NCBI RefSeq assembly: GCF_964355755.1
Contig: NC_092678.1
Location: 3,426,422-3,490,421, forward strand
DNA: 64,000 nucleotides
From: Antedon mediterranea
Taxonomy: Eukaryota; Animalia; Echinodermata
Direction: 5' to 3'
Shown one piece after another: positions 19,124-61,608 of the stretch. The position numbers and the translations under genes were made by a program. The number at the start of each line of letters is the position of its first letter. The stretch's first letter is position 1. The notes beneath the pieces are model-generated. The model worked only from the letters and a program-made list of their open reading frames with translations. It was not told the origin of the DNA and did not search any database.

Positions 19124-19313
19124 AAAGCGTTACACGGGCAATTAAGCAATGTAGACAGTAGCCTGATCAAATCTCTATTTTGTTTTACTGTGTACTGAAG
19201 CATAATAATAACCTTCGCTGTTCTATTTTGTAAGAGGTAAAATGGTCACAGTCACACTCCAACACAGTTTATCCTCTACGTCCCTACTGATAAAATAGGA
19301 TAGTCGATGTTGC

Positions 19314-19385: not shown

Positions 19386-22300
19386 ATGAACCGACTTGCA
19401 GTAATTGTCTTGGCTGTGGCAGTTTTTGCTACTCTCGCCGAAGCAAAGAAATTTGCTAAAAAGGAGGAGGAGGTAGGCTTAAGTTCTTATAATTATCTTT
19501 TTCATTACTCACATGAACCATTGTATAGAGCCTATACTTACTGTAATCATCCACAAGGTTGATTACTGATACATTTTATTAATGTTTTCCTTTTTTTGTT
19601 CAGGGCCTCTCGAATGAACACTTGTGTATTGTTGAATGTAAGTAGTAAACTGAATCTAATACCTGTAATAATCATAATGATTTTGATCGCTGTTGAATTT
19701 CATTAATATAAAACTTGCTAAACATCGGAAACATTGCATACAATGAAGGTATTGCAAACGCCGAGATTAATTTATATATGTATATATATAGTAATATTAA
19801 TCAATAAAATATTAAACGTCTATTATTTTAATATATTTCCACAAACAAAACAAGCACAAAGATACAGATACAAAATTGCTTGCTTGTAGAATTAAAACAA
19901 AATAGACACTGAAATTATACAGTATAAAGAATACAGGCACGGTGATACAGGAGTATGCCTATTAACTTTATCTTCCTTCTAATATAAATAATGTCTCTCG
20001 GCACTATATATCCATTTATAGATTTGGGTATATTAGTTAGTTAGTTATCTTTTTGATTATATTATAAGATGATGCCCGTCCATTGGACGGGTAAATACTA
20101 ATAGGCCTATATATTATAATAATGATGATATTGAAAATAATGATGATGTTGAAAATGATGCTGCTGATGACGACGAAGATGGTGATGCTGTAATAAATAC
20201 AAAAACTTAACAAGCAAGTTTACTTTTTATCCAAGGCATGTGTAATGTATTTGACGAAGACAATAACGATTATCCAGTCGATTGTATGCCAAATGCATGT
20301 GAATATTCTGAAACACCTGAAAATTGTTGTAATGAAGATGAAGCCAATGGCTGGTTTTTCTATATTTCTGCTACGGGGGTGTGTTTTGATATCAAATGTC
20401 AAGGAAGTAAGTTTAAACATGAATTGTTCCATGGTTTAAAGATGAATTTACATGAAACTCGAACAAATATATATATATTTTAATTGCTCATACCAAAGAA
20501 TTATTTCTTGATGTGTCTAAAACTGTTTCTTCTCCCAGAAATTAATAGTGTTCACAGCTTTAACCAGTGTTTTGAATAATTTAACGAGTAATGTTTGTTG
20601 TCTTTGTTTTGTTGTTCTCTAGATGCTGCTGGCTGGGAAGAAGCATGTGGTAGGTATTAGGTATTGTTGTCAATAATATTAAAAGTCACGAAAGAAAATT
20701 TACGTCTTAAACGCCCATTAAATGTGCATGCCAGTGTAACTCCATCTATCAGGTTCAATATACATACTCCGAACGCTTATGGAAGTGTATTAGGCCAACG
20801 GTGGGTCATTGCGTTGTTCTCTCATGGCCCCCTCACTCTTTTTTCGACGGAAAACCCCAGAACTTGTTATACGTATTCTGTAGTGTTGTTTATTACTTCG
20901 ATACTGTGTACGTAATAAAAGGTTCTACTTGGCCAAGAGCTATTATTAATCTTCTAAAAAACATTACCAGTAGGCCTATCATTCCATTTGTTTTTTATGA
21001 TGTTGGTGAGAAGAATAGGCCTAATTTAGTAGGAAATAGATATATATATATATATATTTTGATATCGCATAAGCGACCATAACTATATTAATGTACAGCA
21101 ACGCCTACACTAGCAGATTCTCTTCGGGTAGTGTTTTCGGTGATGGGAAATTCCTTCTAAAACATCATCATACCACAACGTAGTCGTGATATGCAAATGG
21201 TTAATTATTGCTGAGGGCCTAAAGCTGAAGATTTACTAAGGTTCATACGAAGTTTTTAGTCGCGTGCAACTCGACTCTACAGCCCACTATGTCAGTCGGT
21301 TGGTCGGTCGGTCGTTAAATTAAGCCTAATACATAACTTGATGGCTTCGGTTATGTAGATCTACAAACCATAGTTAAAGTAAGTTAATATGCATTAGATG
21401 ATGTATTAATGTAAACATGTATGAAACTACGCTGATCATAATTGATGAAATAAAAGTTTTGGAAAAATCACAATAAAAAAAAGCTGAAATTAAATTAAAA
21501 TCATATAACGATGGCCAATAGAGCGTTTTCAAGTATGAAACGTCCGTTATGTCAATTCATTGTGCGGGGATATTGGGACGGGCTTTGCTCATCCTACCTG
21601 AACACAGTTTTGACGGTGCGACATCGTTTGACCTGACCTAGTTACGTCATTGGTCGTCGCAAATCGCAAGGTTTACCTCCTCAATAAGTAATATTATAAA
21701 GATGTTTTCTTTTCAATTAAAATTATATTAGGCCTATTTCATAATGATATTGAGCTTTTCACAAGATGAATATACTGTTTTTATTTTTTAAAGAATGTAG
21801 GAATGACATTGTCAACGGCGCAAATGGTACGTATGCTTTTATTTTTGTTTAATTTTTTTAACATCAAGTATTAATGGTTTTTTGCCAGTGACATGGAGAC
21901 GAGCATGAAAATATTAATACATTAATTCAATTTCAATATTGATATCCGTATCATAAATTTAAAGAAACCTTTTGTTAAACTGATTGATTATATTTACTTG
22001 AAGAGTATATACTTAACATTTTACGGCATCTTATAATATTAAATTTGAGTGTATTGTGACTGGATTTTGTGTGTGTTTTACTGCTATAATAAATATATTT
22101 ATTATTGATTGTTATACTTTTTTAAAGAAGGTTACATTTTCATAACTTCATATTTATTTTTGCTTGTTTTTTTGTTGCTAAAAATAAAGGGAATGAATGC
22201 ATTTCAATGTAAATTAAATGAAAGCTTGTTTATACAACGTAGAATTACAATACTAAAATAAGGCATTCTATGCAATATTAACATTATTATGATTAACATT

Positions 22301-23311
22301 TTCAAATTTCCAGTACAGGGGCAAATTAAGAAGACAACAGAATACATACAGTTATTGTAGCCTAACATAGATTACTCCTCTACATACATAATGCAAACAA
22401 GAGAAATAAACTCTGAATCATGTAGATTAATACATATTGTTATTCATAATATGATAGTTATTGTATTTGTTTAACTTTTTGGAATAAAAGATATCCTCAG
22501 TGCAGGAGATGATGAACTTCAATGTGGAGAAGGACAGGCTGGTGAAGATGAAGCGGGAGAGACTGACGAAGATATTGGTAAGACATTACTTTGTTTAAAA
22601 TAAATCATCATAAATCGCCCATAGATGGACAAACAGAAACAAGGGAGAAGTATTATTCTTTTTCCTTGTTTTTGTTTAAGCTTGGTTCCCACTAGAACGC
22701 AACGCAATAGTGCTGCAAACATCGATGGTTTGATTTCACGCTGGCGGGGGCAAACACAATGATTGGAAGGGCATTTTCTTATGTTGCGTAGATTGCGTTA
22801 CGTTGCGTCGCTAGTGGGAACCACACTTTATACGCATGCGAGGAAGAGGACCTGGTAAGGGTTCCACCTTTAAGCTTGGTTCCCACTAGCGACGCAACGT
22901 ATCGCAATCTACGCAACGTAAGCAAATGCCCTTCTAATAATTGTGTTTGCCTCCGCCTGTGTGAAATCAAACCTGCGATGTTTGCAGCACTATTGCGTCG
23001 TCGGTTCCCACTTGTGATTACGCATTCCATCACTCTGCGTCGATACGTCGCAGCGTTGTGCTCTAGTGGGAGAACCACGCTTTATAGGGTTACAGGAATG
23101 CCTATTATTTAATATTAATTAAATCAATAATATATTAAAATCTACCTTATTATCTGAAATAGATGAGAAGACTGCTGCTACTGCTAAGCGGGTAATGGCC
23201 AAAAAGAAGCTGATGGCTGCTAGACGCAAAGCAATGGCTAGCAAGAAATCGATGGCTAAAGAAAAGAAGCTGAAAGGTTTCATAGAGGCTTTCAAAAAAA
23301 GAAACATCTAA
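19386..23311 (+). CDS. Secreted precursor (about 195 aa): signal peptide, acidic 12-Cys core, basic Lys/Ala/Met-rich C-terminal tail; unknown family
   Basis: Exons 19386-19472 (MNRLAVIVLAVAVFATLAEAKKFAKKEEE), 19604-19637, 20236-20406, 20623-20649, 21794-21826, 22491-22577, 23163-23311 all have AG/GT borders and join in one frame (588 nt including TAA). TATA box about 70 nt upstream. Confidence 0.85.
22678..23082. mobile_element. Two adjacent MITE family B copies (22678-22828, 22872-23082) in the last intron of the first secreted gene
   Basis: aagcttggttcccactag ... ctagtgggaacc termini. Further copies at about 26197-26426 and 40037-40215. Confidence 0.82.
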
Positions 23312-25410: not shown

Positions 25411-26620
25411 AATAAGACGAACATCCTGATTATGGGTTTATTGAATGAAATATAAGATTTTTTTTTATAAAGTCATGATTATACAATTAATGCGAGTATC
25501 GATATAGTTAACTTCAATTATTGAGACATGGAATGAATAAACACCAAATCTACCTTTAACTAAGCTTATAACAAGTTACTATTTGTTGGAATGTGTTGGT
25601 TTATAATTGGTGTACGTTTTGAATGTATAAACACAGAGAAATTAGTATGGTAAATAATCTCTTTTGCTTGATTAATTCCAACAAGGAGTGTGCGTTTTCT
25701 TTAGGCCTACGTTGTTTCTTTTGACAACCACCAGTAAACGGATGCATAAAGTGGTTTATCATGCGTGCTAATATTAAGTGTTTTCAATTTTTCGGTTGAA
25801 ATAGGCCATATGTTGGTATGAATACATTGGAATGTGATTATATTTAGTTAGATAGTAATTTAATTTCGGTCAATTAATTCACAATATCATATCTGACTGT
25901 TTTCATTTGCCACACCTGTAATTTAATATAGGCTAGTGGATCTTGCCCAATCTGACATGAACCATGTATTGAATACTCATACTGGATGAAAACAAGAACA
26001 ATACACGTTTGGAAGAATTAATTTTAACGTTCAAATTTGCCCAAATATGAAAATGTTATGTCGGCCTACCACCCAACTAAATATGTTCTGTATTCAGTGT
26101 GACTCACCCTACACTGTGAAAACAAGCGTCTTTAAAAATGGACGCGTCACTGAAAATAAGAAAATACTATAAACCTATTACCTTGATTCCTACTAAAGCT
26201 TGGTTCCCACTAGAAACGCAACGTAAGTGCGTAACGCAACGTAAATTATTTGACCAATCACAAGCAATGAACATTCAAACTGTCGCTTGTCATTGGTCCA
26301 CTCGCAAGGACGTAAAGCGCAGCGCAAGGAATTTGACTAACCACGACGTAATGTAATTGAGTGTAAACTTAACTTAACTTGTGCTTACGTCATTGTGTTG
26401 CGTCTAACAAGTGGGGGAACCAGCTTAAATGTGTTCATGGCACTGTCTGTAACGTGGAGTACCAAGTTGTCTACACTCAACATACTTGGATTTCTTTTAT
26501 GTTAACTTGTTTACAGTGACAAACGTAAACATTTTTTATGTATATTATACAATTAATACGGTATATAATCTAGTATATGTATTAAAATACGGCGCTGATT
26601 CGCCTGTACAGCGTATGCTT

Positions 26621-26743
26621 AAGCTCTGTCTTCACTTTCAAACTAGTTTTACAAAATAATGTGCCCAAATATGGTAGTAATATGACATCATTATGTCCAT
26701 ATATGGGCACATCACATAAAGTTTGATAGTGTAGACAGAGCTT
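26621..26743. mobile_element. MITE family A copy
   Basis: aagctctgtcttcactttcaaact ... agtttgatagtgtagacagagctt. Confidence 0.85.
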
Positions 26744-27159
26744 TAGAATTCAAGTGTTAGAGAGCCTTTTTTTTTTTTCGTTTTATTTTTAAATTTTTGG
26801 AACTGTCATGTTAAATACTATGGGAAACGTTCACATAACTGTTGGTAATATAAGTTATTCTTTTGTTTGAAATTCTGAAAGAAATCTTCCGGATAATTTA
26901 AACTAAAAATATTGTTATTGAAATCACTACTTGTAGATAACAATGATGCAGCAGATTATTACATTTTATACATGGGTAAACAGGCAAGTTTAGTTTGTAA
27001 CGTAGACATTAATAACTCAATAAACATACCTATTCAATAATAGAATCACCTGACAAGAAACATATATAATATACGTGCGTAAGAAGTTTCAACGCTTTAG
27101 CATATTTTTACTTCTTGATATCAATAAGCAGACGCTTAGTGAAACAATAAAAAGTAAAG

Positions 27160-30100
27160 ATGAACCGAGTCGCAGTCGTTATCTTGGCTGTGGCAGTGAT
27201 TGCCACACTCATCGAAGCAAGACCAAATCTTGCTAACAAGTTAAAGGTGAGTTATCCTTCTATTTTTACCGTTAGTGGGAATATCTTTTCTGTCTTTTTT
27301 ATTTGTTTGTTTGTATTATGCATTACATCGTGATGTAAATCTAAACATTGATAATGTTACTCTATCATCTAAACAAATATCCTTTTCTCGCTAGCTACCT
27401 GCTGATTGTTAAAAGCGCTTTATTGATATGACTACATCAATAACATACTCGCATTTCTAGTGTATTGTATTAAATCATCAAAGTAATATTGATACTAAAC
27501 ATACAAAGTAAAATACGTGATTTCCGGATTTTGAAAAAACTAACGGGAAGCTTCGATTATATTCCGTACTATAATAGTTTGGTTCATCGAGTGCACTCTG
27601 TAGAATTTGTGTTTTGTGTTTAATATACACCGAGTGTAACCGATGGAGGAACTCTCACGCAAAGAAACATTACAAACTAGGAAGGTATAATGAGGCATTC
27701 TATATACAGGTGTAAACTGTCATGCCACTCAAAGAAAACCCAAATTTGTGACTGCTTTTCTTTCGGGAGGGTATACTGTATTTACAAAAAGATTTTATAA
27801 AATAAAGCAAACTATTTATGCTTATATTTTTTGTTTTCAGAGTAAACGTGGAAAGAAATTACTAGAAAGTAAGTTTTAACCAAAATGGCACCATTATCTT
27901 AAAATTAATGTTCATTAAACAACCTATTAATATTTAAATAAATCACAAGACTCTCTAATGGTAAAAATGTAACATCTGTATTTAGAAAGAAAATGTATAC
28001 TTGTCTCATTTTGAGGCATTAGGTTCTGTCTCATGACATAAATCAAGATTTACCAATGCCCTGTTGACTGTAAAACAAACAACTTAACAATTTCTACGAT
28101 GAAATTAATTGATAAAACATTTTTAAATAAAAGGTTTATAAAAGATTCCAATACAAATACAACAAATAATGATGAAAAATATTATTTTAATAAGCTACCT
28201 TCTTGGAAATATTTTGGAGGCCACTAGAAATAAAATCACTAAATTATGTAACAACTATAGTAAAAATCTAAACATTTACATATTATTAAAAAAGGAATTG
28301 ACAATTTTTTTCTCAGTAATAAAGACCCCATTTTCTTTGATCTTAAATCCAATGATGTCTATCTATTAAATTCTGAGAACTGTGACGCCTCTAACGTCGA
28401 GGAAACTTCGCGACATCTAAAGATAAGAATCCATAAGAGTAGGGATTAAAATACACATATAGTACAAAGATATTAATTAGTAATAATAGAGAATTGTCTA
28501 GATCACAAAATACTTACCTGTATAAAAATGTAAGACCGTATTTCATTGCAGTGATGATGTTATTCGGCGTAACAACGAAACATTTTTGCTAACATTTTGT
28601 CATAACTCAAGTTTTCTTTTAATGTTGCTATGCTTTCGAAAGTTCGGAAACATTATTTTACATTACTTTAAACACTTCGGTGTCAATCAAAGACTTACAA
28701 ATGTTGGAAAAGCTCTTGAAAATCAAGTAAAAGCAGCTGATGTAAAATACATTCAAATAAATATTGTTATTGTTTTTTTTATAGTTTCTCAGAGAAAGAA
28801 AGAATGTAAGTATACAAAAATAGTTACCTTCAATTCAGTTTGCATTGAAGAATGCACCAATAATGATTTTCAAAAGCAGCATAAAACTGAATTAGTTAAA
28901 GACATATACAATCTTGTTATATTATTAATTGTTAATATTTTTTAATTTGTTATAATAATAATTATTAATTTCGCTAAACTAAACAATGAATTTTCTTCAC
29001 GTTTCTTGAATGCTGAACTATAAATTATTCTGATACTTAATGATTTGATTATTTTTTTTAAAACTTAAAGTAGCCGAGAAAAAAGATGTTTGTAAGTATA
29101 TCTTCTTTTTATTTATTGTTCTTATACAATCCGCAAAAATCAGAATAATAAACAATAATAAGCTTTATTTATTCATGGACACTTAACTCAACTAAAAGTT
29201 GTTTTTCAGTATGTAATAGAATGGTATACATCAACTTTTTGCGCTCGTATTTTAACGTACGTGCATGTTGCGTTTGCGTGGATTTTTAAAATTTAAATGT
29301 CTGTGAAATTTTATTTATCACAAAGGTCATCTATAATTCATGACGAAATTAATTTTAGCTTGAAAGTAAAGTTATTTGTGATTATTTTTATTTTGATTCT
29401 TTTAAGAATGTTTCCAACCTAGGCCTAGTTGTTTAGTATTTTTGAAGTTTATAATTTAAAAAAAAAAAATGTATGTGACATTTAAAGGATGATAAGGCTA
29501 ATTTAAAATAAAACGTGCTTTTTATGGTGTTAAATATAGGCTAAACATTGATTGTTTGGTGTCGTTTGTTAACACACTTTTATAGTGAATAAAAGAATAA
29601 ATAATATTATCAAAGAACTTATGATATTATCTACTTGCATGGGCAAGTGATCTGTTATTGTATTGTCAAATTCTATCTTAGCATTGGATCTACTGTATTA
29701 TACTGATTATTTTTACTGGAAGTTTTTTTAGACGGCCCTTGACAAATGTTCGAATTTCCACGCCACAAGCCGTGAAACCCCCAGGACTTATGACACAAAT
29801 TATGATAACATGTTTTGATTATGAAATTTAAAATTAAATTTGATTATGATTATTTTCACAGGGAGCGATGACGACTTCGATCTTGGTAAGTCTTTAACAC
29901 ATTTCCACAATGTTTATTTAAATCTATATGAAGTAGGGTAAAAGAATGCACAATAATAAAGTTACTTTAAAATAAAAACGTGTTTTATATTATTTCCAAA
30001 GATGACAAAAAATAAGTTTATTAACTCAAATTTCATAGTGATAATTAATTATAATAATTAACCTGCAAGTGATGCTACCGTATTGTTGAATAGATGAAAA

Positions 30101-33100
30101 TTATAAATATTGTGGAATGATGAATTTTATTAAAGGTAAACGTTCTTCCTAGATGGCGTATGGTATAACAATCACAAACAATTTCATGATAAATAAATTA
30201 GGCATAAACATTAAAAAAATATATTGTTAATAATAACTTACTTCGTATACCATATCCATAGAGTTATTTCTTTATCATCAAACTCATTCCAAAATTTTGG
30301 GATATTGTTGGATAGTGACATTTAAAGGATGATAAGGCTAATTTAAAATAAAACGTGCTTTTTATGGTGTTAAATATAGGCTAAACATTGATTGTTTGGT
30401 GTCGTTTGTTAACACACTTTTATAGTGAATAAAAGAATAAATAATATTATCAAAGAACTTATGATATTATCTACTTGCATGGGCAAGTGATCTGTTATTG
30501 TATTGTCAAATTCTATCTTAGCATTGGATCTACTGTATTATACTGATTATTTTTACTGGAAGTTTTTTTAGACGGCCCTTGACAAATGTTCGAATTTCCA
30601 CGCCACAAGCCGTGAAACCCCCAGGACTTATGACACAAATTATGATAACATGTTTTGATTATGAAATTTAAAATTAAATTTGATTATGATTATTTTCACA
30701 GGGAGCAATGAAGACTTCGATCTTGGTAAGTCTTTAACACATTTCCACAATGTTTATTTAAATCTATATGAAGTAGGGTAAAAGAATGCACAATAATAAA
30801 GTTACTTTAAAATAAAAACGTGTTTTATATTATTTCCAAAGATGACAAAAAATAAGTTTATTAACTCAAATTTCATAGTGATAATTAATTATAATAATTA
30901 ACCTGCAAGTGATGCTACCGTATTGTTGAATAGATGAAAATTATAAATATTGTGGAATGATGAATTTTATTAAAGGTAAACGTTCTTCCTAGATGGCGTA
31001 TGGTATAACAATCACAAACAATTTCATGATAAATAAATTAGGCATAAACATTAAAAAAATATATTGTTAATAATAACTTACTTCGTATACCATATCCATA
31101 GAGTTATTTCTTTATCATCAAACTCATTCCAAAATTTTGGGATATTGTTGGATAGTGACATTTAAAGGATGATAAGGCTAATTTAAAATAAAACGTGCTT
31201 TTTATGGTGTTAAATATAGGCTAAACATTGATTGTTTGGTGTCGTTTGTTAACACACTTTTATAGTGAATAAAAGAATAAATAATATTATCAAAGAACTT
31301 ATGATATTATCTACTTGCATGGGCAAGTGATCTGTTATTGTATTGTCAAATTCTATCTTAGCATTGGATCTACTGTATTATACTGATTATTTTTACTGGA
31401 AGTTTTTTTAGACGGCCCTTGACAAATGTTCGAATTTCCACGCCACAAGCCGTGAAACCCCCAGGACTTATGACACAAATTATGATAACATGTTTTGATT
31501 ATGAAATTTAAAATTAAATTTGATTATGATTATTTTCACAGGGAGCGATGACGACTTCGATCTTGGTAAGTCTTTAACACATTTCCACAATGTTTATTTA
31601 AATCTATATGAAGTAGGGTAAAAGAATGCACAATAATAAAGTTACTTTAAAATAAAAACGTGTTTTATATTATTTCCAAAGATGACAAAAAATAAGTTTA
31701 TTAACTCAAATTTCATAGTGATAATTAATTATAATAATTAACCTGCAAGTGATGCTACCGTATTGTTGAATAGATGAAAATTATAAATATTGTGGAATGA
31801 TGAATTTTATTAAAGGTAAACGTTCTTCCTAGATGGCGTATGGTATAACAATCACAAACAATTTCATGATAAATAAATTAGGCATAAACATTAAAAAAAT
31901 ATATTGTTAATAATAACTTACTTCGTATACCATATCCATAGAGTTATTTCTTTATCATCAAACTCATTCCAAAATTTTGGGATATTGTTGGATAACGTTT
32001 TTAAATTTAAACTTTTCAATATTTTCTGGTATTATGCGGTAATTAATATTTAATTGTGTTATCGACAAAACAACATTTTTTCTATGCTTATACCTTTTAA
32101 ATAAAAAATCCAATACTGTTCAATCGAATTAAAAGATGGGCCATATATAACGATTATACAATAATTATAAAACGTAATGATATAAGTTAATTTGAATTGT
32201 TTATGATTATTTTCACAGGATCGTTGTCCGATATTCCCGGTAAGTCAGATTTTTATTGTATCTAAATTAGGTCTATCTATACAACCACAACAGCGACATT
32301 TAGCAAAGTTTATGTCAAATAACTGCCAGACACATTCTTTGTAAAATGATCGGGTTAACGATACATTCACCCACGGAAATGGAAGAAACTATGATTACTT
32401 TCACATATTTTCCGTCACATATGTCATAACGTAGCTTAAGCAAAAAAACAAAAAAAATGTTAGTGTACCATTTTTATGCATATTAGGATATACTGATAAT
32501 AAAATTATTTATTTAGGTTCTTTCAAAGATGTTTAAACTGTCAATAACTTACTAAGATTAGTTGTATGTACTTAATTGTGTTAAACTACTGTGGAGTAAC
32601 TATGCGTCAGGGAGTTAATTTGTAAATACATTGAGAACAAGTTGTTCTTCGGTTGGACGCAAACCCACGACCTCCAGTGTTCTCAATGTACTTAGTATGT
32701 ATTTCAATGTTTATTGAGAGACCTCTAATAAATTTATCAGCATCTTTCAATTTGTTTAATAATAATAATATCATGGATTTATATAGCGATATATATATAA
32801 ACCAAATCGAAGTAAGGGGATACGCATTCGTCGCTAACCAGGGATCGGTCTAATTGAACTCCGGTTTAAAGGACCTAGATCTAAATTAGAATAACGATCG
32901 TTTTGAGGCAAATCAGTAAAGTAACAGTAAAACTGTACATGGAGTTAATTTTTATTAATTATTTAAATAAAGACTACTGTTGCACACATAATTGTAGCAC
33001 GCAGACGGCTATGTTTGTTGTAATATTCAATTGACTTTTCAGTGACGTGCATCCATTACATTATAATCGTGTTATGTTGTTCAATACGACCATTACTTAT

Positions 33101-33803
33101 TATCATTTTCTCTCTATGTTATTATGTTATGTAATACATCTATCGAATCAAAATTTGTTAAACCATTGAGAAAAACTATTTGTTTTTTCTCCATGGTAAA
33201 CGCAACGTGAACTTATGGACAAGATGAGTTTGCATATTGTTTACAGTGACAATAAATCCATATACTTGAAAAGCATCAATAGATTTTTAAAAGATAGCAA
33301 AACTGATTAGTTTGAGACATGCGTATACAATCTTTCGTTATAGGCAGCATATATTGCTAATTTTATTTTTGTTTGATTAATCACTGTTAATTTATATATA
33401 TACATTATCTTCACGTTTTAAAAGCTGAAATTTACATTATATTTTTACGTAATAAAAGTCATTAATATAATAATCTGATAAAATTGGTTTATGATTTTAC
33501 AGAAAATGCTTTGAGGCAGTCGCGAAGTCAGCCATTGTATTTAAAAAAAAAATTTTTGTGCCACTGTCGCCAATAATTAACAACGTTCGATTAAGTATAT
33601 AATTTTCCATTACTTATGAAACCGCCGGCGTGTGAATGTAGATTTTACTATTTATTTAAAAAATAACTACTGTTTGTTTGTTCGTTAGAAAATTCCCATT
33701 TATAAAATAGCAACTGTTAAACCACCATGTGATAAAGTTAATTAAAATAAGAAATTTCAGGGCCGTGGATGAACGTAATGTAGGCAAAAAATGAAATGTA
33801 TCC

Positions 33804-33835
<32 letters not shown>

Positions 33836-34544
33836 GTATTAGTGTTATTATTATTATTATTATTATTGAGGGGCACATTCATTGAAATAAGAAAATGAAT
33901 TGAAAGTGTTAAAAGTTAATTTGTAATAAATGTTTTTTATATTACTTTCACAGGTAAGTATTTCAGTATGTCCATACTGTAGTGTAAGCAACATGAAATG
34001 AAATGTAACTATCTCTTATGCCTATTATAGATTTTTAAAAAGTTTTAAAATGTCGTGTAGCCTATTAATATTATTAATATTATTAAGGGACCTATTCATT
34101 GAAATAAAAAATTATTGAAAGTCATAAAAGTTAATTTGTAATAAATGTTGTTTATATTACTTTCACAGGTGAGCAGTCGTACTCGTGTAAGTATTCCACG
34201 CATTTCCATACTGTAGTTTAAGCAATACGAAATGATATGTTACTATCGCTTATGCCTATTATAGATAAAAAAAAGAAGTTTGAAACGCAATGAAATGTTG
34301 GGTATCCTATTATTATTATTATTATTATTATTATTCTGGGGCCTATTCATTGAAATAAAAAATGAATTGAAAGTGATAAAAGTTAATTAACTATACCAAC
34401 TGAACAGCTAGGCTCCTCTTATATTATTTAATTGATTAATTCCTGTCACCCATTGATGTTTCTTCGTTTCGTATTGTTTATTTGACCAGCATATTTTAAT
34501 AGATCATTTCATTGAAAATGAATATGACACATAATACTCATAGC

Positions 34545-34611
<67 letters not shown>

Positions 34612-37600
34612 CGAGGGGCCTAACAATTATGGATGAATCTTCGAACTGTGATTGTGATTGGTGAATTCACTTACACGCATGCTAAAGCTTTAAAGTTTTA
34701 CCGAAAAATTACACAATAATTTATAATAATCAGAAAATCAAATAATCGTCCAATCAAATTACAGATTAGTCATGCGTCATAATAAATAGATACAATTGTT
34801 TTCATGTTGTATATTGATCTGTCAACTGATGAGTAAACAATAATGAAATATCATTAGATCGTTAATAATACGACTTGGGGCAAGCTTAACGCAAATGAGC
34901 CAGTTGAACCCCTCATGTTAAATAAAAACATAAAAAAGGAAAACAAAAGTAATTAATAAAATAAATTTAAAAAATGTAATTTCTGACTTTGTACTATTCC
35001 ATCATTTGTTCTTGAAAATGGATCCATTTTTTTATTATATTGTAGGCCTAAATGTTTTGTATTATTATATCTATGAAATCAAAATCTGATAAAATTGGTT
35101 TATGATTTTACAAAAAATACTTTGAGGCAGTCGTGAAAACATTTTTGTGGCACTTTCGCGAATAATTACAACAAATGAGTTTCTATTACTTATCAAACCG
35201 GCGCCATGTGAATGCATTTTGCTATTTATTTAAAAAATATTAAATTTATTAATATATGTAATACTATTTTTGGTTCGTTAGAAAATTCCCCTTTGTTTTA
35301 AAATTTTTATTATCGTTTTGATAATGATTTACCTTCAATAATTCAGGTTGCATATTGTTTACAGTGAAAGTAAATCCAGATACTTGAAAAGCATCAATAT
35401 GATTTTGAAAAGCTAGCAAAACTGATTTGTCTTGGACATGCGTATATAATCTTTCATTAGAGCGGCATAAAGCCTACTGCTAATTTTATTTTTATTTAAT
35501 TAATAATTTTAATTACCAGTTTCACTGTTAAAAAACATTTATATACATTGTCTTCACGTTTTTGAAAGCTGAAATTGACGGTACATTATATTTTTACGTA
35601 ATAAAAAAGAGTCATTAATATATATTTTTTACATACAGTAGCCGAGGACAAGAAGACCTGTAAGTATAGTCTATTTTATTGTGGCTTTATATGAACATTA
35701 AAACTTTGTTTGAATGTAAAATTTTTGTAGGCCTAACATTTTTAACTAAATTTTGAACTAAATATATATAATTTAACTTTCACATGGTCGTCATCCTGTT
35801 CTTAGTATTTTAAGTCATGTTTTAAGGGTCTTTCATACCTATTTCGGCACAGTTCCGGTAAGTATTTCACGCATGTCCATACTGTAATGTAAGCAATACA
35901 AATGAAATGTAACTATCTCGTATGCCTAGTAGTATAGATAAGTTTAAAAAGTAATGTCGAGTATCCTGTTATTATTAAGGGGCCTATTCATTGAAATAGT
36001 AAATGAATTGAAAGTGATAAAAGTTAATTTGTAATAAATGTTGTTTATATTCTTTTCACAGTGGGCTTGGTGTGGTTGTGTAAGTATTTCACACATTTCC
36101 ATACTGTAGAGTAAGCAATACGAAATGTAGGCTAACTATCTCTTATGCCTATTATAGATAACAAAGTTTAAGACGTAATGTCGAGTATCCTATTATTATT
36201 GAGGGGCATATTCATTGAAATAGAAAATGAATTGAAAGTGATAAAAGTTAATTTGTAATCGATTTTGTTTATATTACTTTCACAGTTGACTCGTACTTTT
36301 CGTCATGGTTGTGTAAGTATTTCACGCATTTTAATACTGTAGTGTAAGCAATATGAAATGAAATGTAACTATCTCTTAGTATAGATAAAAAAGTTTAAAA
36401 AGTAATTTCGAGTATCCTATTATTATTGAGGGGCCTATTCATTGAAATAGAAAATTAATTGAAAGTGTTAAAAGTTAATTTGTAATAAATGTTTTTTATA
36501 TTACTTTCACAGTAATACTGTAGTGTAAGCAATATGAAATGTTATTGTTACTATCTCGTATGCCTATTATAGATAAAAAAAGTTTGAAACGAAATGAAAT
36601 GTTGAGTATCCTATTATTATTATTATTATTATTGAGGGGCCTATTCATTGAAATAAAAAAATATTCAAAGTGATATGTAACTATCTCATATGCCTATTAT
36701 AGATAAAAGCGTACAATGATTTAAAATAAAATGGGGTTTATATTATTTTCATAATAATTAATTTATGGAATTCGGACTAATGAGATTATAATTAAATTAT
36801 TAACCTGTATGGGAGATTGATCCATATTGTCAAATTATAACTTAGCAATTGTTACCGATTATTTTTTACTAACGGTTCCATTTCTTACGAGGCCTTTTGA
36901 TAATTGTTTTGGCTTCTGCCACTGTAACCTATGAAATCTCCTGAATTTTCTACACAAATAAACTTGTGAAAAATATCATAACATTTTTGATAAGGAATAA
37001 TTTGAAATAAGTTGTTTTATGATTTTTTTCCACAGCGGAACAGCCTCCTGTCCGTAAGTTTTTAACACAACAAAAGTGACATTTTATCATGGTTCTAAAA
37101 TAACGTAAAATGAAAATGGGGTTTATTTTATTTTCATAGAATAATTAATTTATGAAATTCGGCCTAATGAGATATAATTAAATTATTAACAACTTGCATA
37201 GGCGATTGATCCATATTGTCAAATTATAACTTAGCAATTGTTACCGATTATTTTTTACTAACGGTTCCCTTTCTTACGGGGCCTTTTGATAATTGTTTTG
37301 GCTTCTGCCACTGTAACCTATGAAATCTCCTGAATTTTCTACACAAATAAACTTGTGAAAAATATCATAACATTTTTGATAAGGAATAATTTGAAATAAG
37401 TTGTTTTATGATTTTTTTCACAGCGGAACAGCCTCCTGTCCGTAAGTTTTTAACACAACAAAAGTGACATTTTACCATGGTTCTAAAATGAACGTACAAT
37501 GAAAATGGGGTTTACATTATTTTCATAGAATAATTAATTTATGGAATTCGGCCTAATGAGATATAATTAAATTATTAACAACCTGCATGGGCGATTGATC

Positions 37601-40600
37601 CCTATTGTCAAATTATAACTTAGCAATTGTTACCGATTATTTGTTACTAACGGTTCCCTTTCTTACGGGGCCTTTTGATACTTGTTTTGGCTTGTGCCAC
37701 TGTAACCTATGAAATCCCCTGAATTTTCTACACAAATGAACTTGTGAAAAATATCATAACATTTTAGATATGGAATAATTTGAAATAAGTTGTTTTATGA
37801 TTTTTTCCACAGCGGAACAGCCTCCTGGCGGTAAGTTTTTAACACAACAAAAGTGACATTTTACAATGCTTCTAAAATAACGTACAATGATTTAAAACAA
37901 AATAGGGTTTATATTATTTTCATAGAATAATTAATTTATGGAATTCGGCCTAATGAGATATAATTAAATTATTAACAACCTGGGCGAGTGATCCATATTG
38001 TCAAATTATAACTTAGTAATTGTTACCGATTACTTTTTACTAACGGTTCCCTTTCTTATGGGCCCTTTGATAATTGTTTTGGGTCTATCGAATAAAAACC
38101 TGTTAAACCATGGAAGACAAAAATCTTATGATTGATGAATTCACTTACGCGCAAGCTCAAGTTTTATCGAAAAATGACATAATAATTAATAACTATTATT
38201 GTTGTATTAAAAAAAAAAAGGTTTTTAAACAAAGTTATAATAATACTATATTATCATAATATTAATATTTTCTTTTTACAGTTCCGAACAAGAGGAATGA
38301 TGGAGGTAGGTTCACCGCGTTTATAAATATAAACTATTTTTCTTCCATGTTATTATGTAATACATCTATCGATTAAAAATCTGTTAAACCATTGAAGTAA
38401 AACATATTTTACTCCAGTATTTTTTACTGTCCTAGTCAAACATTAACGGAACTTATTTAAACTTCAGAAAATTAAAAAAAAGTAACAGATTAATCATTCA
38501 CGATAAATATATACTATTATTTTCATGTTGTATAATTGTTCTGTCAACTGATAATGTAAACAATAATGAAATATCATTAGTTTGTCAATACTCATGTAAT
38601 ATTTATCATAATTCATAATCAGTAAAATGATAATAATTCATTTTGAATTTTTTTTATATACGAGAAAACTTAAACTGCATAAGGCATTATGGTAAAATGA
38701 TAATAATTCATTTTGAATTTTCTTTATATACGAGAAAACTTAAACTGTATGAGGCGTATAATAATGATAATTATTACACTTTTGTTTACAGGTTTTGTTT
38801 ACGAAGGCAGCGGCGATGGTAAGTTGACGTTTTTACTGTTCTTCTGTTCATGAACCGCTTCCTAACTTATTTTCTGAAACATATTTTATCAACTGATAAA
38901 AAAATATAATAAATTACTTATAAATGTGATTTTTTAAATGTTGTGGGGAAAGCATCATTATGTTTGAATATAATTAATAATACAGGCTGAATAAATTAAA
39001 ATAAAATAAATTTGATTATATTGTAAACAAGTTATTAGAAAAATCACAGATTTATTACTTTAACTATATACAAACTTAAAACAGATTTTAAAGAAACCTT
39101 ATTATTAATAAATCCAATTACAAGATGCGCATGCGTCATATAATATATACTGTTATAATCACTTAACAATTACAAGATTGCTAATGTAAGTGTAATTCAA
39201 TATATTTTCGTAATACCATTACAGTATTAAGTTTTACTATAATAAATAATACAGGTTTAGTACTGTAATAATAATTTATTAAAAATCAAATCAATAAAAT
39301 ATAAAATAAATTGTACCTGCAATGTATGTATTATCATATCATGTTATATATCTTTTTATATACGAGAAACTTAAACTGCACGACGCATAATAATAATTAT
39401 TAAACTGTTGTTTACGAAAGCAGCAGTTGCTGTTCTTCTTTTCATTATTCCGGCTTAGTCCTGTTACTAACAGTACTAACAGTAAATTTATAATTAATAC
39501 ATTTAAAATATAACACAATTATGCTTGAACTTGAAACACAGAAATGTGTGGATACAAAATTATCTTGTAATATGTTGTATTATTACCATTACCTATTGAA
39601 TAAATCTTATTGAACTTTAGAACATTGAACCAATACCTCATACCTCATTGCTAATGTAATATAATATAAATAAAATATTTTTGTAATAGTATCATTATAT
39701 TTGACATAATTACTAGTTCAGTATAGTAATAATAATTTTTTATTGTTCTCATAAAAAAATTAAATATACCTGAAATTGATGTATTATTAATAGCATGTTA
39801 TTTTAATTATAATTCTTTCACACACTATTTTTTTTTTTACAGTTTTTGTTGATGAAGGTAAGTTTTAAAACAGAATTTATCCCCAGCTTCATGAACAGTT
39901 TTTGTTTTGAATGAGTTATACGATTGAAATAACAAACAAAATGGTATTTGGCACTGTTTATGCACTGATTCTGCTTACTGTAGGCTTATTTCACGCTTGG
40001 TCGCAATGCAAAGACGTAAGCGCGCCGCAAGTAATTAAGCGTGGTACCCACTAGCGACGCAACGCAAGGACGTAACGCAATGCAAGTGAATTGACCAATC
40101 ACAAGCGATGGCTTATTCGCTTGTCATTGCTAACTGTCTATAACTTCGCTTGTCATTGGTTAAAACGCTTGCGTTGCGTTTACGTCCTTGCATTACGTTC
40201 TAGTGGGAACCAAGCTTTAAGGGATGGATATTGTTTGCATGTGACTTTTATTTATCCATAAGAAAGAATTACCAAGTATAAAAACATCAATATGACAGAA
40301 TGAAATATGAACATAAAGGAAGGCGAGAAAAACTACATGCCTATCGAGCTCAACTTCCAAAATTAAAAAAAAAAGAAATGACATTTCTTTTAGAATATAT
40401 CAAGCAAATCATGTAAGAATTAATTAATATCAAAGTGCAGTAGTTATTGAGTATAATGCTTTATTTTTTTTAACTTTTTAGATGTTCGAGATGGTTCTGG
40501 CATGGGTAAGTTAAAAACTTTATTAATACTATAAAATGTTTATTGTAGTTTTTTTTGTCTTGTGTGAGTTCATCTCACGTTTATTTAAATTCTCATTGAT

Positions 40601-42964
40601 GAATATATTATATACATATAGGTAAGTTTTATTGTAGTTAGTGATAATTCATTATTAATCAAAGTAAATCGTAAGTACGAATATTTAGCAATTTGTACGC
40701 CCTGCATCCACTCCACATCCAGTAGGCTTATAAACAGTTCCATTAAACTGTTTTAAACTTTATTGATATCTATCATGTTTATAATTAGGCCTAAAATAAT
40801 TGTGTGTGTTAAAAGCTTTAACAAAATCAACAAAATCAAATTACAAGCTGCGCCGTATAGATACTATATAATAGTCATGTTTTCTTGTAATTTATTTTTT
40901 GCTGGTGGTATGGTACTATACTTTTACTTCTAAAATATACACTTTTTAAATTATTATTACCAATAAAAAAGAGAAGTGGGTGTTTCTTTTTCAGGAAGTT
41001 GACATATATGATTTATCTGATAATGATACAGTCAAATAATAATGTTAATAATTGTGTTGAATTGACATTATCATAATATAACCATGTTATTTGTTTTTTA
41101 TTATAGGTGATATGGAGGAGAGGGATGATGGTAGGTTTATGTTTTTTTTATTACAGTATATAGTTTTAGACGGTTTTGGGGTTTTTTCTTCTTATAAATA
41201 CTATTTGTTATCATGTTGTAAAATTGCTCTTTAACTGATAAGGTAAACAAGAATAAAATATTATTAGTTTGTCAATACTAATATTTACCATAATTATTCA
41301 ATTAAAAATCAATTTTATTTCATTTCCACATAGTTTTTGTATACTAATTTGTAGATGCAGTTTAAATAATGTAGTTGACTAATGTTTCATAAAGTAGTAA
41401 TGATTTTGAGAGTTTATTATTTTCGTATTTTAACAAAGAAAACAGATTGAAAACTATTGATATCAAATATATTTAATGTTTAAATTTAGAAAAGATTGGT
41501 TTGGTATGGGCTCGATAAGTTGATTTAAAACAAATACGAAGCGCTTTTTTCTGTAATTTAAAAAGATGGTCCAACTTTGTAGTTACCGTAGTAGTCCATG
41601 GCCATTGGAAATGTTTATTTGTAACAGTTCCCCATAACAAGTTACAATACGACAAATACGGAAAGAACCATGGTATTATAATGAAAAAAGAATATTTGTT
41701 GTTAAACTATATTTTTCTCATTGCTCCAATATTTCTTGATTTTTAGTTAATTGCTGTTTCAAGTTAAATTGGGTGTCAATTGTGATTCTAAGAAAATTTA
41801 AATGTTGTTTTTCTTTAATTAAAAGATTATCAATTTTGATTTTAAATTATTATTCCCTCGGACGTGTCTTCTGTCACTTAAAAAATATAAACGTTTGTTT
41901 ACAGGCAACGTTTCCACTGGCGACGACGCGGATAGTCACGGCAAGTTTGATTTTTTTAACTGTTTTTCTTTTCCCGAGCCACTTATGAACTTCTGAAATA
42001 TAAATTGTATTTTACCAAAAATAACTGTAATTTTCAATATATTTTCGCGATTGTATATTTAGGTTTGAATAATATTATAACTTAAAAACCCAAGTAAATC
42101 CAACTTCCAATTTATATTCTGTATTTTATTTACTCATTTGTTTTTGAGAATGGTTCCATGATGGTTCCGAAACGTCGATCTTTTTTCATAATTCCGGTTC
42201 AGTTCTGTAATAATAATTTTGAATTGTTGATTTGTATGCCCACCTCCACCAACAACAGGTTTCAATTTTTGCAAGTTAAATTTTACCTTAAATTGTTTTT
42301 ATTACTTGGGTAAAATGTTATATATATTATCAAAATATACAAACAGAAACAGTTCAATGAACATACTTGGCCGAGATTAAATGTTAGTTGCCATGTGCGT
42401 CATAATAAATTAATATTGACCAATCACAAACTGAACTGTTGCTTGTGATTCGTCAACTCATATTGTGTTTTGCCTACCTCATTGAGTTGCGTCCAGTTAT
42501 ATGTAAGCGTTAACAGCTCATCAATTAAAAAAATGTTGCTTGTAATTTGTGTCAAATATGACAAAAAAACATCGTGAAAAATAAAATTGTCGGTAACTTA
42601 TATTTTCATTTCAAATTAAAAATAATCCTTCGATTTATTTTGAATATTACAAAATTATAATTTTAAACATCTTTAATAAACAATTAAGTTTATTAGGACA
42701 TCGATTGATTTAGATTGGGTGGAAAGTGTAATATTGTCACATTATTGTAAGAGGTTACGTTATTTATTTGTATACTTATACTTGATATTAATAGGCAATG
42801 TAATAGGCAACAAGAAGACAAAGAAGGTTGCTCGTATGTTGGCGGCTAAGAAGATGATGGCGGCTAAGAAGATGATGGCGGCCAAAAAGGCGTTGGCTTC
42901 AAAGAACTTGCTGAAAGAGTTGGCTAAGAAGCGAGCCATGACCAAAGCCCTCAAGAAAAACTAA
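27160..42964 (+). CDS. Microexon-built secreted protein (about 235 aa if all exons are used), paralog of the 19386-23311 gene
   Basis: Exon 1 27160-27246 (MNRVAVVILAVAVIATLIEARPNLANKLK) and exon 2 27841-27868. Then 19 phase-1 exons, all multiples of 3: 28785-28805, 29071-29091, 29862-29885, 30702-30725, 31542-31565, 32219-32239, 34169-34186, 35639-35659, 36062-36079, 36286-36312, 37036-37053, 37424-37441, 37813-37830, 38282-38305, 38792-38818, 39843-39857, 40482-40505, 41107-41130, 41905-41940 (GC donor). Last exon 42795-42964 (KKVARMLAAKKMMAAKKMMAAKK...). The full join has no stop codon. Confidence 0.82.
29475..31994 (+). repeat. Three tandem 840-bp copies, each carrying one 24-nt microexon
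   Basis: Line-by-line identity at period 840; the only differences I found are at 30707 and 30712. Confidence 0.95.
33780..36705 (+). repeat. Family of about 225-bp intronic units (ggggcctattcattgaaat...ttactttcacag [exon] gtaagtatttcac...) in two clusters, with interspersed (ATT)n microsatellites
   Basis: Units recur near 33870, 34087, 34338, 35978, 36202, 36429 and 36635; (ATT)n tracts at about 33805, 34311 and 34547-34610. Confidence 0.85.
36710..38085 (+). repeat. About 3.5 tandem copies of an approximately 388-bp unit carrying the 18-nt EQPP(V/G) microexon
   Basis: Exons at 37036, 37424 and 37813 (spacings 388 and 389); the flanks are nearly identical. Confidence 0.92.
40037..40215. 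mobile_element. MITE family B copy in an intron of the microexon gene
   Basis: aagcgtggtacccactagcgacgc ... ctagtgggaaccaagctt. Confidence 0.85.
41400..41760 (-). mobile_element. Degenerate LINE (L2/CR1-group) reverse-transcriptase C-terminal fragment
   Basis: PYLSYCNLLWG...LFKLQKKALRIC..YRAHTKPIFSK is typical of the end of non-LTR ORF2; it is frameshifted. Confidence 0.75.
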
Positions 42965-43379
42965 AAGGGCATTAATAGCAAAGATACAAGAATAAAGTGT
43001 ATTTGATTGATATATGTTTAATCATTGGTGAATGGTGATGGGACCTTTAATATATAGGCCTACATTTATTCTGGCCACATTCGATATTCTTTCATCCTTA
43101 AGATAATATTTAACAACTTACATGTTTTAAATTGAGTTTATTTTTACAAAGTGTATTCATTATACACAGAAAGAGTGATATTCATGGAAACTTGTGAAAA
43201 TAACAATAAGAATAAAAACAACATTTTTAAATATGTACTATCTTATCTTTTAATAAACTTTATGCAGGCATTAATACTTTGTGTATATTGTTTTTCTAAA
43301 TTATGTGTACAATAGAACGACTTACAAATTGTGTATTTAAAGAGCAGGCAAAAAAATGTGCATGTTTGAGGGTGGGGAA

Positions 43380-43497
43380 GAAGACCCTGGGCAGAGGACC
43401 CTGGGCAGAAGACCCTGGGCAGAAGACCCTAGGCAAAATACCCTGGGCAGAAGACCCTGGGCAGAAGACCCTGGCCAGAGGACCCTGGCCAGAGGAA
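43380..43497. repeat. 14-bp GC-rich minisatellite (agaagaccctgggc), about 8 copies
   Basis: Direct reading; it explains the overlapping spurious ORFs at 43296-43591. Confidence 0.9.
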
Positions 43498-43966: not shown

Positions 43967-46427
43967 TCATAAATAATCTCGGTCTCTGGGTGGGTTCGGA
44001 TTCTTCAAATTCCTTCTTCGAATTCCACTGAAAATGAAATTTGTGGTTGAATTTGTGGTTGAATTTGAGGAAATGCAGATCAGTGAATTTTAAATAAACA
44101 CGTACATTAAACAATGTTTGTACTTACACTGGATACCATCTATGCTTTGTCGTATAATAAGTCTGGCTTAAATCGGAAATGCTAGGTCCTCTTTTCTCCA
44201 TTTCATAATGGTCAAATTGAAGTTTACTTTTTAGTATACTCTCAGTGCTGTGCTGTACAAATAATAAAAACAGAAATATCATTTTGATAATGAAGCCAAA
44301 GCAAAACAAAATGCCCATCAAAAAAAAAAAAAGGAATAGCAAAATCTTGATATAACTTACATGCATGTCTGGATTAACTGGGTCTTGTCGCGTTATCGGC
44401 TAAAAGATAAAAAACAAAACAAATATTGCTTTTGATATTGCCATCAAAAAGATACAAAAATGTATCTGGTTATCTATGTGGTTTAACAAATAGTAAAAAA
44501 AGAATTGAGTAAGAAAGAGTTGATAAGTTAATCTATAGTGATTGATGTACTGTATTTGAATATAACTACAATTGCAAGCCTTTTCTTTTAAGGCGAGCGA
44601 GTGCGATCACTCACCTAACACACTTCTAAACTGCCCTTGGGGAGTGCGATTTACAACACGCTTAAATTTGGTAAACTTCCACACACCAAAATACAAACAG
44701 CACACCTACAGCACCCCTAATGTATTGAGGAGTGCAATTTGTAGCACAGTTATAATATTCAAAAGACAAGGCCTGCAATTGATTATCAAACTGTTAGTAG
44801 TTGAACTTTCAACACTAGAAGCTCATAGCTAAAGGGCTTTCACACCTGTTCCGGCACGGTTCCAGTCCCGCGAATCGAACATCAATGTTTTGTTGCCAAT
44901 CGATATGCGCGTAGCCGCGTGAAAACGAAACATTGACGTTCAATTGGATTTTCCGGCGCCGGACTGGAACCGTGCCGGAACAGGTGTGAAAGCCTCTTAT
45001 GATAGTATGAGATTTTACATTCTAAAAGGTTACCTTTGTGTGTTCATACGGAAAATCGTTTGCAGGATGGTAACAAACAAACATTGAACCATCTGATGTT
45101 TCTGTCCATTGCTTACTAAAAAGAAGAAAACAAAGATGTTTTTTTAACAGAATGGAGGAGGTCATCATGACACTGGGAACATGTATAAGTACTTTTGTAG
45201 ACAAAATATGGTATACACAAATAAAAATAGTTCTTCAGGTTGAAGATGAGGGAATTGTAATACAGTTGACTTTCCCAATACCAAACTCTCTGAAAACCAA
45301 AAACCAGACTTTTCTTGAGGTGCAATTCATTTTTGCCAGTAAAAAACATTCCGAATACCAGATTTTCTAAAAAAACTAGACATATTAGGTCGGCCCAAAG
45401 GTGTCTGGTATTGAAAGAGTTGACTGTAGTAAAGTAGATAGTGATACTGTAAAGTCTTGAATGAAAGTAAAGAATTGTTTTGCTACAGAAAAAAAAATCT
45501 TTTGAACCTAAAAAAAAGTGTATAAACTATTTACTATACTATTTAAAATATCCTTGAGGTGCAGGATAACATTTCACAAAATTATATAATTAAATTCAAT
45601 TTGATTGATTGATTTGAAGGCAAGCAAAAAAATAAACAGCATCGGACCTTTTAAAACCAATGTCTCCTAAAAAAGGCAGAGTTAACATAATATATATATT
45701 TGTTTAATCAAATTACTCACCTGTGTATGGTTCCAGAGGAAAATATGCGTCGTGACATTTCATTTAAATCTAAACAAATTAAAAATTAAAAACAAGCAGT
45801 TTTATTTATAAAGGAAGATTTGATACAAGTTGGTAATGTATGCATGCTTCACTTCATATAAGTATGACAAAATTGATTGTATGTCATGATTAAAAAAATG
45901 TCATTAAATAATTTTATAATAATAATTCTAAAAAAAATAAGAATTATTTAAAAAAAGAAGAGAAGAAATTTCAACTAATATTAATAATGGGCTGAAACAT
46001 CCTGATTGGCCTCTCTAGGACTAGTTAGGCCCTAGATTATCACATATGTTAGGAGGGCTGGATTGGTAGTAGTTAGGCAAGGCTTAGCTAGCCTAGATCG
46101 ACTACTAGGCTCCACCGTGGCACTTGTCAGCCAAGCAGACGGCGAGGCCTACCTTGGCTACTACTAGAAGGTAGGCAAGTCAGCCTTGCTAGGCCTATCT
46201 TGGTCTAGTAGGCTAGGCCTAGCTAGCTAGCTAGTAGGGTTAGCTAGCTAGTAGTAGGTCTAGCTAGGCTAACTTGGTCAGCCCATACCTAAATTATTAA
46301 ATAAACCTAAACCACTTTTGATATAACGCCTCTGATAGAAATTTTAATTCAATGTGAACTTACTTTTCAGAAATATCAACTTTAATCGAGAAAAGTGCTG
46401 AAATGTGTATCTCATGGACGCAGCCAT
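43967..46427 (-). CDS. MRPL42: Mitochondrial ribosomal protein mL42 (MRPL42/MRPS32), 6 exons, 139 aa
   Basis: Exons 46427-46364, 45769-45721, 45115-45034 (TSDGSMFVCYHPANDFPYEHTK), 44399-44361, 44252-44128 (YYTTKHRWYP), 44027-43967 (RRNLKNPNPPRDR). The motifs match vertebrate MRPL42 (CYHP..PYEHTKP; TTKHRWYP; NPPKDR), and the N-terminus resembles a basic transit peptide. Confidence 0.93.
44832..44998. mobile_element. MITE family D (TIR ggctttcacacctgttccggcacggttccagtcc) in an MRPL42 intron
   Basis: About 32-bp perfect inverted repeats, TA-flanked. Confidence 0.85.
45261..45428. mobile_element. TA-flanked CAGT...ACTG MITE (Tc1/mariner-like); second copy at about 54803-54990
   Basis: Shared sequence ctttcccaatacc...cccaaaggtgtctggtattg...actgta. 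Confidence 0.65.
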
Positions 46428-48751: not shown

Positions 48752-49655
48752 TGCCTCTTGTTCATCCTTTTTCTTTTCATTCCATGTTTTTGATGGTCTG
48801 CCTCCTCTTCTTTTTTTTTCATTCCATGTTTTTGATGATCTGCCACCTCCTTCTTTTCTTTTCATTCCATGTTTTTGATGGTCTGCCTCCTCTTCTTTTC
48901 TTTTCATTCTATGTTTTTGATGGTCTGCCTCCTCTTCTTTTCTTTTCATTCCATGTTTTTCATGGTCTGCCTCCTCTTCTTTTCTTTTCATTCCATGTTT
49001 TTCATGGTCTGCCTCCTCTTCTTTTCTTTTCATTCCATGTTTTTGATGGTCTGCCTCCTCTTCTTTTCTTTTCATTCCATGTTTTTGATGGTCTGCCTCC
49101 TCTTCTTTTCTTTTCATTCCATGTTTTTGATGGTCTGCCTTCTCTTCTTTTATTTTCATTCCATGTTTTTCATGGTCTGCCTCCTCTTCTTTTCTTTTCA
49201 TTCCATGTTTTTCATGGTCTGCCTCCTCTTCTTTTCTTTTCATTCCATGTTTTTGATGGTCTGCCTCCTCTTCTTTTCTTTTCATTCCAAGTTTTTCATG
49301 GTCTGCCTCCTCTTCTTTTCTTTTCATTCTATGTTTTTGATAGTTTGCCTCTTGTTCATCCCTTTTCTTTTCATTCCATGTTTTTCATCGTCTGCCTCCT
49401 CTTCATCCCTTTTCTTTTCATTCAATGTGTTTCATAGTCTGCTAGGCCCCTTCATTCCTTTTCTTGTCATTCCATCTTTTTCATGGTCTGCCTCTCCTTG
49501 TTCATTCCTTTTTTTTTCATTCCATGTTTTTCATGGTCTGCCAACCTCTTCTACATTCCTTTTCCTTTCATTCCATATTTTTCATGGTCTGCCTCTCCTT
49601 TGTCCATTTTCTTTTCATTCCAAGTTTGTTATGGCCTGCCTCTTCTTCGTCCCTT
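48752..49655. repeat. 42-bp minisatellite, about 20 copies with degenerate ends
   Basis: Unit ttttcattccatgtttttgatggtctgcctcctcttcttttc; it generates the MKRKEEEADHQKHG and PPLLFFSFHVFDGL ORFs. Confidence 0.95.
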
Positions 49656-61428: not shown

Positions 61429-61608
61429 CCATTGCAAACTCAAAATATGACAACATAGTCTCATCTTGTCATCGAAATTACCATTCCGATACCAATCTTG
61501 TGTTGAGTGGTCACTATACGTTTCCTTAATAGACCAGACCACATTTATACCATCTCATTCAACCAATTTTTGTCTCTACAAATATTATTACCTTATTGGG
61601 TGCTGTAC

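Follow-up and report, generated by a model that had tools for sequence, protein, structure and literature searches.

The window analysed here spans 64,000 nt of Antedon mediterranea NC_092678.1 (3,426,422-3,490,421, forward strand), and all coordinates below refer to it. A predicted gene of about 16 kb lies at 27160-42964 on the plus strand, in which 22 exons with 708 nt in total encode 235 aa. A predicted signal-peptide exon and a phase-shifting exon 2 are followed by 19 symmetric phase-1 micro-exons of 15-36 nt and by a basic last exon. The features of this gene outside its cassette array, together with its upstream paralogue, are as follows:

19386..23311, plus strand: upstream paralogue XP_071960554.1 (P0001), a RefSeq uncharacterised protein of 195 aa in 7 exons
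27160..27246, plus strand: exon 1, 87 nt, phase 0, predicted signal peptide and short basic stretch
27841..27868, plus strand: exon 2, 28 nt, phase 0 to phase 1
28785-28805 and 29071-29091, plus strand: two 21-nt phase-1 micro-exons, copied in an older duplication to about 35320-35659
29475..31994, plus strand: three 840-bp exon-plus-intron units with 24-nt exons at 29862-85, 30702-25 and 31542-65
32219..32239, plus strand: 21-nt micro-exon, with 8 substitutions in organism B and the frame kept
35639..35659, plus strand: 21-nt micro-exon AEDKKT, paralogue of 29071-29091
36728..38082, plus strand: 389-bp tandem units (3.5 copies) with 18-nt exons at 37036-53, 37424-41 and 37813-30 (EQPPV, EQPPV, EQPPG)
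38282..41940, plus strand: six phase-1 micro-exons of 24, 27, 15, 24, 24 and 36 nt, acidic and Gly-rich
42795..42964, plus strand: last coding exon, Lys/Ala/Met-rich tail of net charge +18

The gene model is our own, since no protein record matches the last exon, which as a query found no match in Pfam, protein databases or the atlas. Once the exons of array units U2, U4 and U5 (see below) are included, its frame is open over 235 aa. The 19 internal exons contain no stop in phase 1, as against 2 and 9 in phases 0 and 2, and all 19 that follow exon 2 are of phase 1-1. Twenty of the 22 exons do not exceed 36 nt and 19 are symmetric, with micro-exons making up 451 of the 708 coding nt (64%, or 73% counted after exon 1). 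An unsupervised acceptor-donor scan returned multiples of 3 in 15 of 18 pairs within the gene and in 6 of 18 elsewhere in the window (Fisher p=0.006, the duplicated units not being independent). The initial annotation had noticed that length changes in the array stay multiples of 3; this regularity extends to the entire gene, of which the array is one sector, a context that it had overlooked. The 36-nt exon predicted at 41905-41941 requires a GC-AG intron (donor GCAAGT).

Hydropathy peaks at 3.7 in the hydrophobic core of exon 1, and the predicted protein falls into charge blocks of +8, -28 and +18. The gene product is likely a secreted, disordered crinoid protein. An amphipathic antimicrobial tail was considered and rejected, the best moment of the basic tail being reached by 1648 of 2000 shuffles, and this want of amphipathicity weakens an antimicrobial-helix role. 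A 701-nt contig from X8 matches 42794-43388 and, past the last 3' splice site, carries 84 further letters that do not follow the intron; at a guess this contig is probably RNA, and its departure at that site hints at a spliced transcript. No micro-exon was matched by a contig, a result that is uninformative either way, as exons of 15-36 nt probably offer too little sequence for a match to start from.

The upstream paralogue is related to the micro-exon gene in its signal peptide (exon 1 is identical at 15 of 29 positions) and in its basic tail, and has a Cys-rich, acidic core. It carries three short phase-1 exons, is a singleton in the protein collection and has no Pfam match. Elsewhere in the window, a plexin-A2-like gene occupies 1-16130 on the plus strand, with a RefSeq match for the exon at 14315-14479. 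A high-copy palindromic MITE is present at 40033-40221, 18286-18469, 18939-19127 and 26194-26269 in copies that are 95-98% identical, and other MITE families lie at 26615-26749 and 44825-45000. A 42-nt tandem repeat of 20 copies at 48769-49652 on the minus strand appears to encode a charged 14-aa repeat of a separate gene, and a 46-nt minisatellite of 15 copies with strong C-rich strand skew lies at 60722-61429.

Units of the cassette array

Two blocks, 33868-34388 and 35766-36712, make up the array. Its six units (U1-U6) each measure about 220-250 nt, and two truncated units (34338-34388 and 36635-36712) accompany them. Together with a site upstream of the second block, they are arranged as follows:

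33868..34062, plus strand: U1, acceptor abutting donor (zero-length), the exon precisely deleted at 33953/33954
34085..34310, plus strand: U2, 18-nt exon 34169-34186 encoding EQSYS in phase 1
35320..35323, plus strand: lost-exon site, where organism B has 40 extra letters comprising an intact AG, a 21-nt exon and GTAAGT
35766..35970, plus strand: U3, donor 35858 intact, acceptor side replaced
35978..36193, plus strand: U4, 18-nt exon 36062-36079 encoding GLVWL, conserved in organism B
36202..36422, plus strand: U5, 27-nt exon 36286-36312 encoding DSYFSSWL
36429..36614, plus strand: U6, exon and donor deleted after 36512, flanks mosaic
36635..36712, plus strand: U7 (truncated), internal deletion of acceptor, exon and donor

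The 64-nt flanks upstream of the AG are 86-98% identical and the 50-nt flanks downstream of the GT 82-88%, which is far above chance, and TRF reports a period of 227 nt at 35858-36513. Donor flanks of the 840-bp units are 75-86% alike to those of the array (family D18). Such conserved flanks had been described in the initial annotation around five cassettes, and its inserts are exact to the letter: 0 nt at 33953/4, 18 nt at 34169-34186 and 36062-36079, 27 nt at 36286-36312, and the exon and donor missing after 36512. The disrupted U3 was absent from its list as the sixth unit. Same-sample sequencing runs contain 87-93% of the window's words and a same-sample contig reproduces 34620-36030 without a difference; neither is independent support, and U1 and U6 are not bridged by the contig.

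Damage to the units takes several forms. The acceptor and donor of U1 both obtain scores like those of genuine sites in this gene, on a splice-site matrix in which one training donor was mispositioned, as was the test site near 33503, whose score was ignored. On the acceptor side of U3, a dead CAT at 35785 is followed by a transposon-end-like fragment, which differs by 8 substitutions in 39 columns from the inverted-repeat end at 44950-45000 of the transposon at 44825-45000. The upstream flank of U6 is U1-like and its downstream flank first U5-like, then U2-like; U1 and U6 share the closest upstream flanks (63/64). Such a mosaic is what unequal exchange would give, which means that two separate losses are not required to explain U1 and U6.

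The related species termed organism B provides an outside view of these changes. Its extra 21-nt exon at 35320..35323 resembles the 28785-28805 exon (16/21, counted by eye), and since this exon is found both in organism B and in a paralogous unit, it was lost in the Antedon mediterranea lineage. Organism B also has 237 extra letters at 35766/7, about the length of one unit. Its contigs at 90% likeness do not cover 33250-33426, 33604-33957 (with U1) or the bin of U6, by which absence is not proven. Within X8 data, labelled organism A and stemming from another study, a single contig of depth 8 joins 36706 to 35940, which implies a different arrangement of the array. Two 85-nt X8 contigs (36209-36285 and 36435-36512, depth below 5) end unmatched 7 letters past an array-type acceptor and possibly stem from another individual in which such a unit carries an exon of its own.

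Exon birth and death had both been claimed to be visible in progress. Death is borne out by U1, U3, U6 and the lost 21-nt exon; birth is not, as the sole candidate for a new exon, the cryptic 12 nt after 36512 (36513-36524), runs into a stop in the gene frame. The 27-mer of U5 had likewise been read as a mosaic of the two 18-mers. The shared 7-mers do exist, while a mosaic origin gains little from them (longest common substring p=0.018 and 0.066, 5000 shuffles). The U4 exon aligns to the 27-mer with 12/18 matches and one 9-nt gap (shuffle p=0.015), and the U2 exon with 10/18 and one 9-nt gap (p=0.034), so that in-frame shortening is simpler than a mosaic. No internal tandem duplication was seen in the 27-mer. 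It is more likely that a 27-nt-like exon was ancestral and that both 18-mers are shortened derivatives of it. As the array exons are alignable relatives, the unit duplicates together with its exon; of the proposal that the splice-signal cassette is the unit of duplication, the tandem, splice-signal-bearing units stand, and the empty cassette without an exon is not supported.

An older, rearranged duplicate of an intron block is found at 33227-33665 versus 35083-35622 (72-78% identical). It includes what may be a dead acceptor near 33502, for which the AG is missing from the copy at about 35112. A resemblance between the U2 exon and 35123-35134 was dismissed on a shuffle test (75 of 300).

Exon and intron divergence

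Alignment of the units showed that exons diverge more than their flanks. Between the U2 and U4 paralogues, 11 of 18 exon sites differ as compared with 15 of 114 flank sites (p=3e-5), and between U4 and U5, 6 of 18 as compared with 21 of 192 (p=0.016). Among the three 840-bp units there are two differences only, both within the 24-nt exon (p about 8e-4) and both nonsynonymous when read by hand, with 816 intronic nt identical.

The comparison with organism B rests on one single-copy contig over 31480-32783, in which 69 substitutions are distributed as 8 in the 32219 exon, 2 in the 31542 exon and 59 in introns. The 32219 exon thus differs at 8 of 21 sites and the introns at 59 of 1259 (Fisher p=4e-6), and a 21-nt window as dense as this was reached anywhere in 31 of 20000 shuffles. 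Codons of organism B were read by hand from the difference rows, 40 of the 136 being listed. All ten listed exon substitutions change amino acids and none gives a stop, and in the 32219 exon all six full codons are changed; taken alone, 8/8 nonsynonymous has a p of about 0.1. This exon may hide small indels (12 of 35 indel rows listed), and its excess may reflect local conversion or a complex mutation. Signals of selection are strongest in these neighbours of the array (29862-32239) rather than in U1-U6 themselves. Over 36023-36107, 85 nt covered by a contig of organism B, there are 3 differences, and for this reason the U4 exon is not considered hypervariable between species. The exon had been described as a hypervariable slot; greater divergence than in the flanks is confirmed, whereas U4 speaks against uniform hypervariability.

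It is conceivable, though unlikely, that the coding gene is real but its middle is a weakly constrained linker, in which duplication and decay of units are neutral. Exons would then merely look divergent, as splice-proximal intron sequence would be conserved or homogenised by gene conversion. This would agree with the damage in 3 of 6 array units, with the background rate of U4 divergence between species, with the low-complexity composition and with the mosaic flanks, which conversion predicts. Relaxed constraint, however, predicts rates equal to those of introns rather than higher ones, and divergence in the 32219 exon is 8-fold that of 1.26 kb of intron, which is single-copy and mostly deep. 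In the 840-bp units, too, it is the exon that varies, with 816 intronic nt unchanged.

Proposed mechanism and further alternatives

Repeated units, phase 1-1 symmetry, an open frame of 235 aa, three damaged units and an exon lost relative to the related species are all observed. What probably underlies them is a micro-exon gene whose exon-plus-intron units were duplicated, with exons driven apart by diversifying selection and some of them deleted, a reading that draws on genomic sequence and that we hold with reasonable confidence. Copy number would be altered by unequal crossing-over or conversion between units, to which the mosaic flanks of U6 point. Because all internal exons are phase-1 multiples of 3, the reading frame is always preserved when one is gained, lost or skipped. 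Exons would be removed by short deletions and transposon insertions; in particular, the U2 exon begins with GTGAG and its donor is GTAAG, and microhomology of this kind may permit the exact excision of a U2-type exon, which would leave U1. Selection would favour amino-acid change in the middle of the polyampholyte, and the protein most likely acts at the animal surface or in secretions, in recognition or defence.

It has also to be considered that U1 and the start of the U2 exon, where the acceptor doubles as CAG/GTGAG, are recursive or zero-length sites that steer exon skipping and thereby generate isoforms. U1 matches the Drosophila recursive splice-site consensus (Y)nNCAG/GTAAGT, in which 3' and 5' splice consensus are adjacent (PMC5126111), and both its sites score like real ones; only three such motifs occur over both strands of the window, two of them in the array. 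Nevertheless, the motif follows automatically from precise deletion of the exon in a duplicated unit, recursive sites are described for long introns whereas this intron measures 1.9 kb, and organism B has no cover at U1, which does not prove absence there. Such a role is considered highly improbable. A second zero-length acceptor-donor motif, at 28517/28518 on the minus strand and antisense of intron 2, is probably due to chance.

Least probable of all is the original proposal of an empty splice-signal slot in which new exons are born and the 27-mer was recombined from two 18-mers, which would suit the large excess of exon over flank differences, the shared 7-mers and the two low-depth X8 contigs, but is at odds with the alignment of the exons to the 27-mer as relatives shortened in frame, with weak mosaic statistics, with polarised change that is loss and not gain, and with the stop in the only new exon candidate.

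Returning to duplicated units under diversifying selection, a bolder extension may be entertained, tentatively and with some doubt: that crinoids independently evolved a schistosome-style micro-exon diversifier, a gene for a secreted protein with frame-neutral units that are duplicated, positively selected, deleted, combinatorially skipped and variable between individuals, with precisely deleted exons persisting as zero-length splice sites. If true, crinoids, which are sister to the remaining living echinoderms, would possess a variable family of recognition or defence proteins that has not been described before. Stages of exon turnover are present together at this locus, namely a near-identical triplet, a diverged sextet, an exact deletion and a loss polarised by a sister species, which makes the multiplication, divergence and death of frame-neutral micro-exons testable.

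Relatives and known systems

Outside Antedon, the ends of the gene resemble those of Anneissia japonica PCNP14 (XP_033113992.1), predicted crinoid neuropeptide precursor 14, which was chosen for its predicted signal peptide, named on one proposed amidated SGPNG peptide and listed in the supplement as N/A for Antedon (PMC9793003). Its exons, read by eye from the supplement, measure 87/154/45/45/45/134 nt with phase 1 after exon 2. Like the Antedon gene it has an 87-nt phase-0 exon 1 (16/29 identical, by eye), phase-1 internal exons and a last exon that opens with GNV..NKK and continues as a Lys/Ala-rich tail. A homologous signal-peptide exon, a basic last exon and the same phases are therefore common to both genes, as judged by eye. 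Tandem near-repeated, Ser/Trp-rich exons, three of them of 45 nt, are found in PCNP14, and tandem phase-1 exons also in Antedon, where the U5 peptide DSYFSSWL resembles the PCNP14 repeat exons, a likeness that is no more than suggestive because the sequence is of low complexity and sits elsewhere in the gene. PCNP14 differs in having 6 exons rather than 22. Neuropeptide precursors are recognised by a conserved peptide between dibasic sites, often with Gly for amidation; the one proposed for PCNP14, SGPNG, is absent from the 235-aa Antedon model. The accessible part of the source does not discuss PCNP14 gene structure or exon turnover (PMC9793003). The locus suggests that PCNP14 is not a neuropeptide precursor and belongs instead to a family of secreted proteins that evolves fast.

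In schistosome micro-exon genes (MEGs), about 80% of the coding region lies in short (6-36 bp) symmetric exons behind a signal peptide (PMC5825161), and these genes evolve fast and are apparently restricted to platyhelminths (PMC4350168). The Antedon gene shares with them mostly tiny symmetric exons (19/19 of the micro-exons), a tandem paralogue, exon patterns duplicated within the gene, of the kind known from MEG-26, and transposon fragments in introns. It probably has a signal peptide as well, to judge by the hydrophobic core of exon 1 and by the likeness to PCNP14, and in part fast amino-acid change: by simple counts, accelerated nonsynonymous change was seen in the exons at 29862-32239 and not in U4. 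Unlike MEGs, it belongs to a free-living deuterostome and has a long basic last exon, and while MEGs produce protein variants by alternative splicing of micro-exons, such variants are hypothetical for the Antedon gene. No homology to platyhelminth MEGs was found with the last exon as the only query, and none would be expected. Because micro-exons account for 64% of its coding region, below the level of about 80%, and no homology was detected, the gene is not filed as a MEG. A search of the open literature, with subscription papers and bioRxiv supplements outside its scope, returned no micro-exon gene architecture described for crinoids or echinoderms.

Conotoxins and snake-venom PLA2 also combine a conserved signal exon with a hypervariable middle and have introns that are better conserved than exons. 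Their variable unit is the whole mature-peptide exon across gene copies, whereas in Antedon exons of 5-12 codons vary inside one gene. MEG architecture is explained by host immune pressure; had it arisen convergently in a free-living echinoderm, it would be uncoupled from parasitism. Duplicated exons and rapidly changing exons are both familiar phenomena; what appears new is that they occur together in a MEG-like gene of a deuterostome that is free-living, alongside losses that are polarised.
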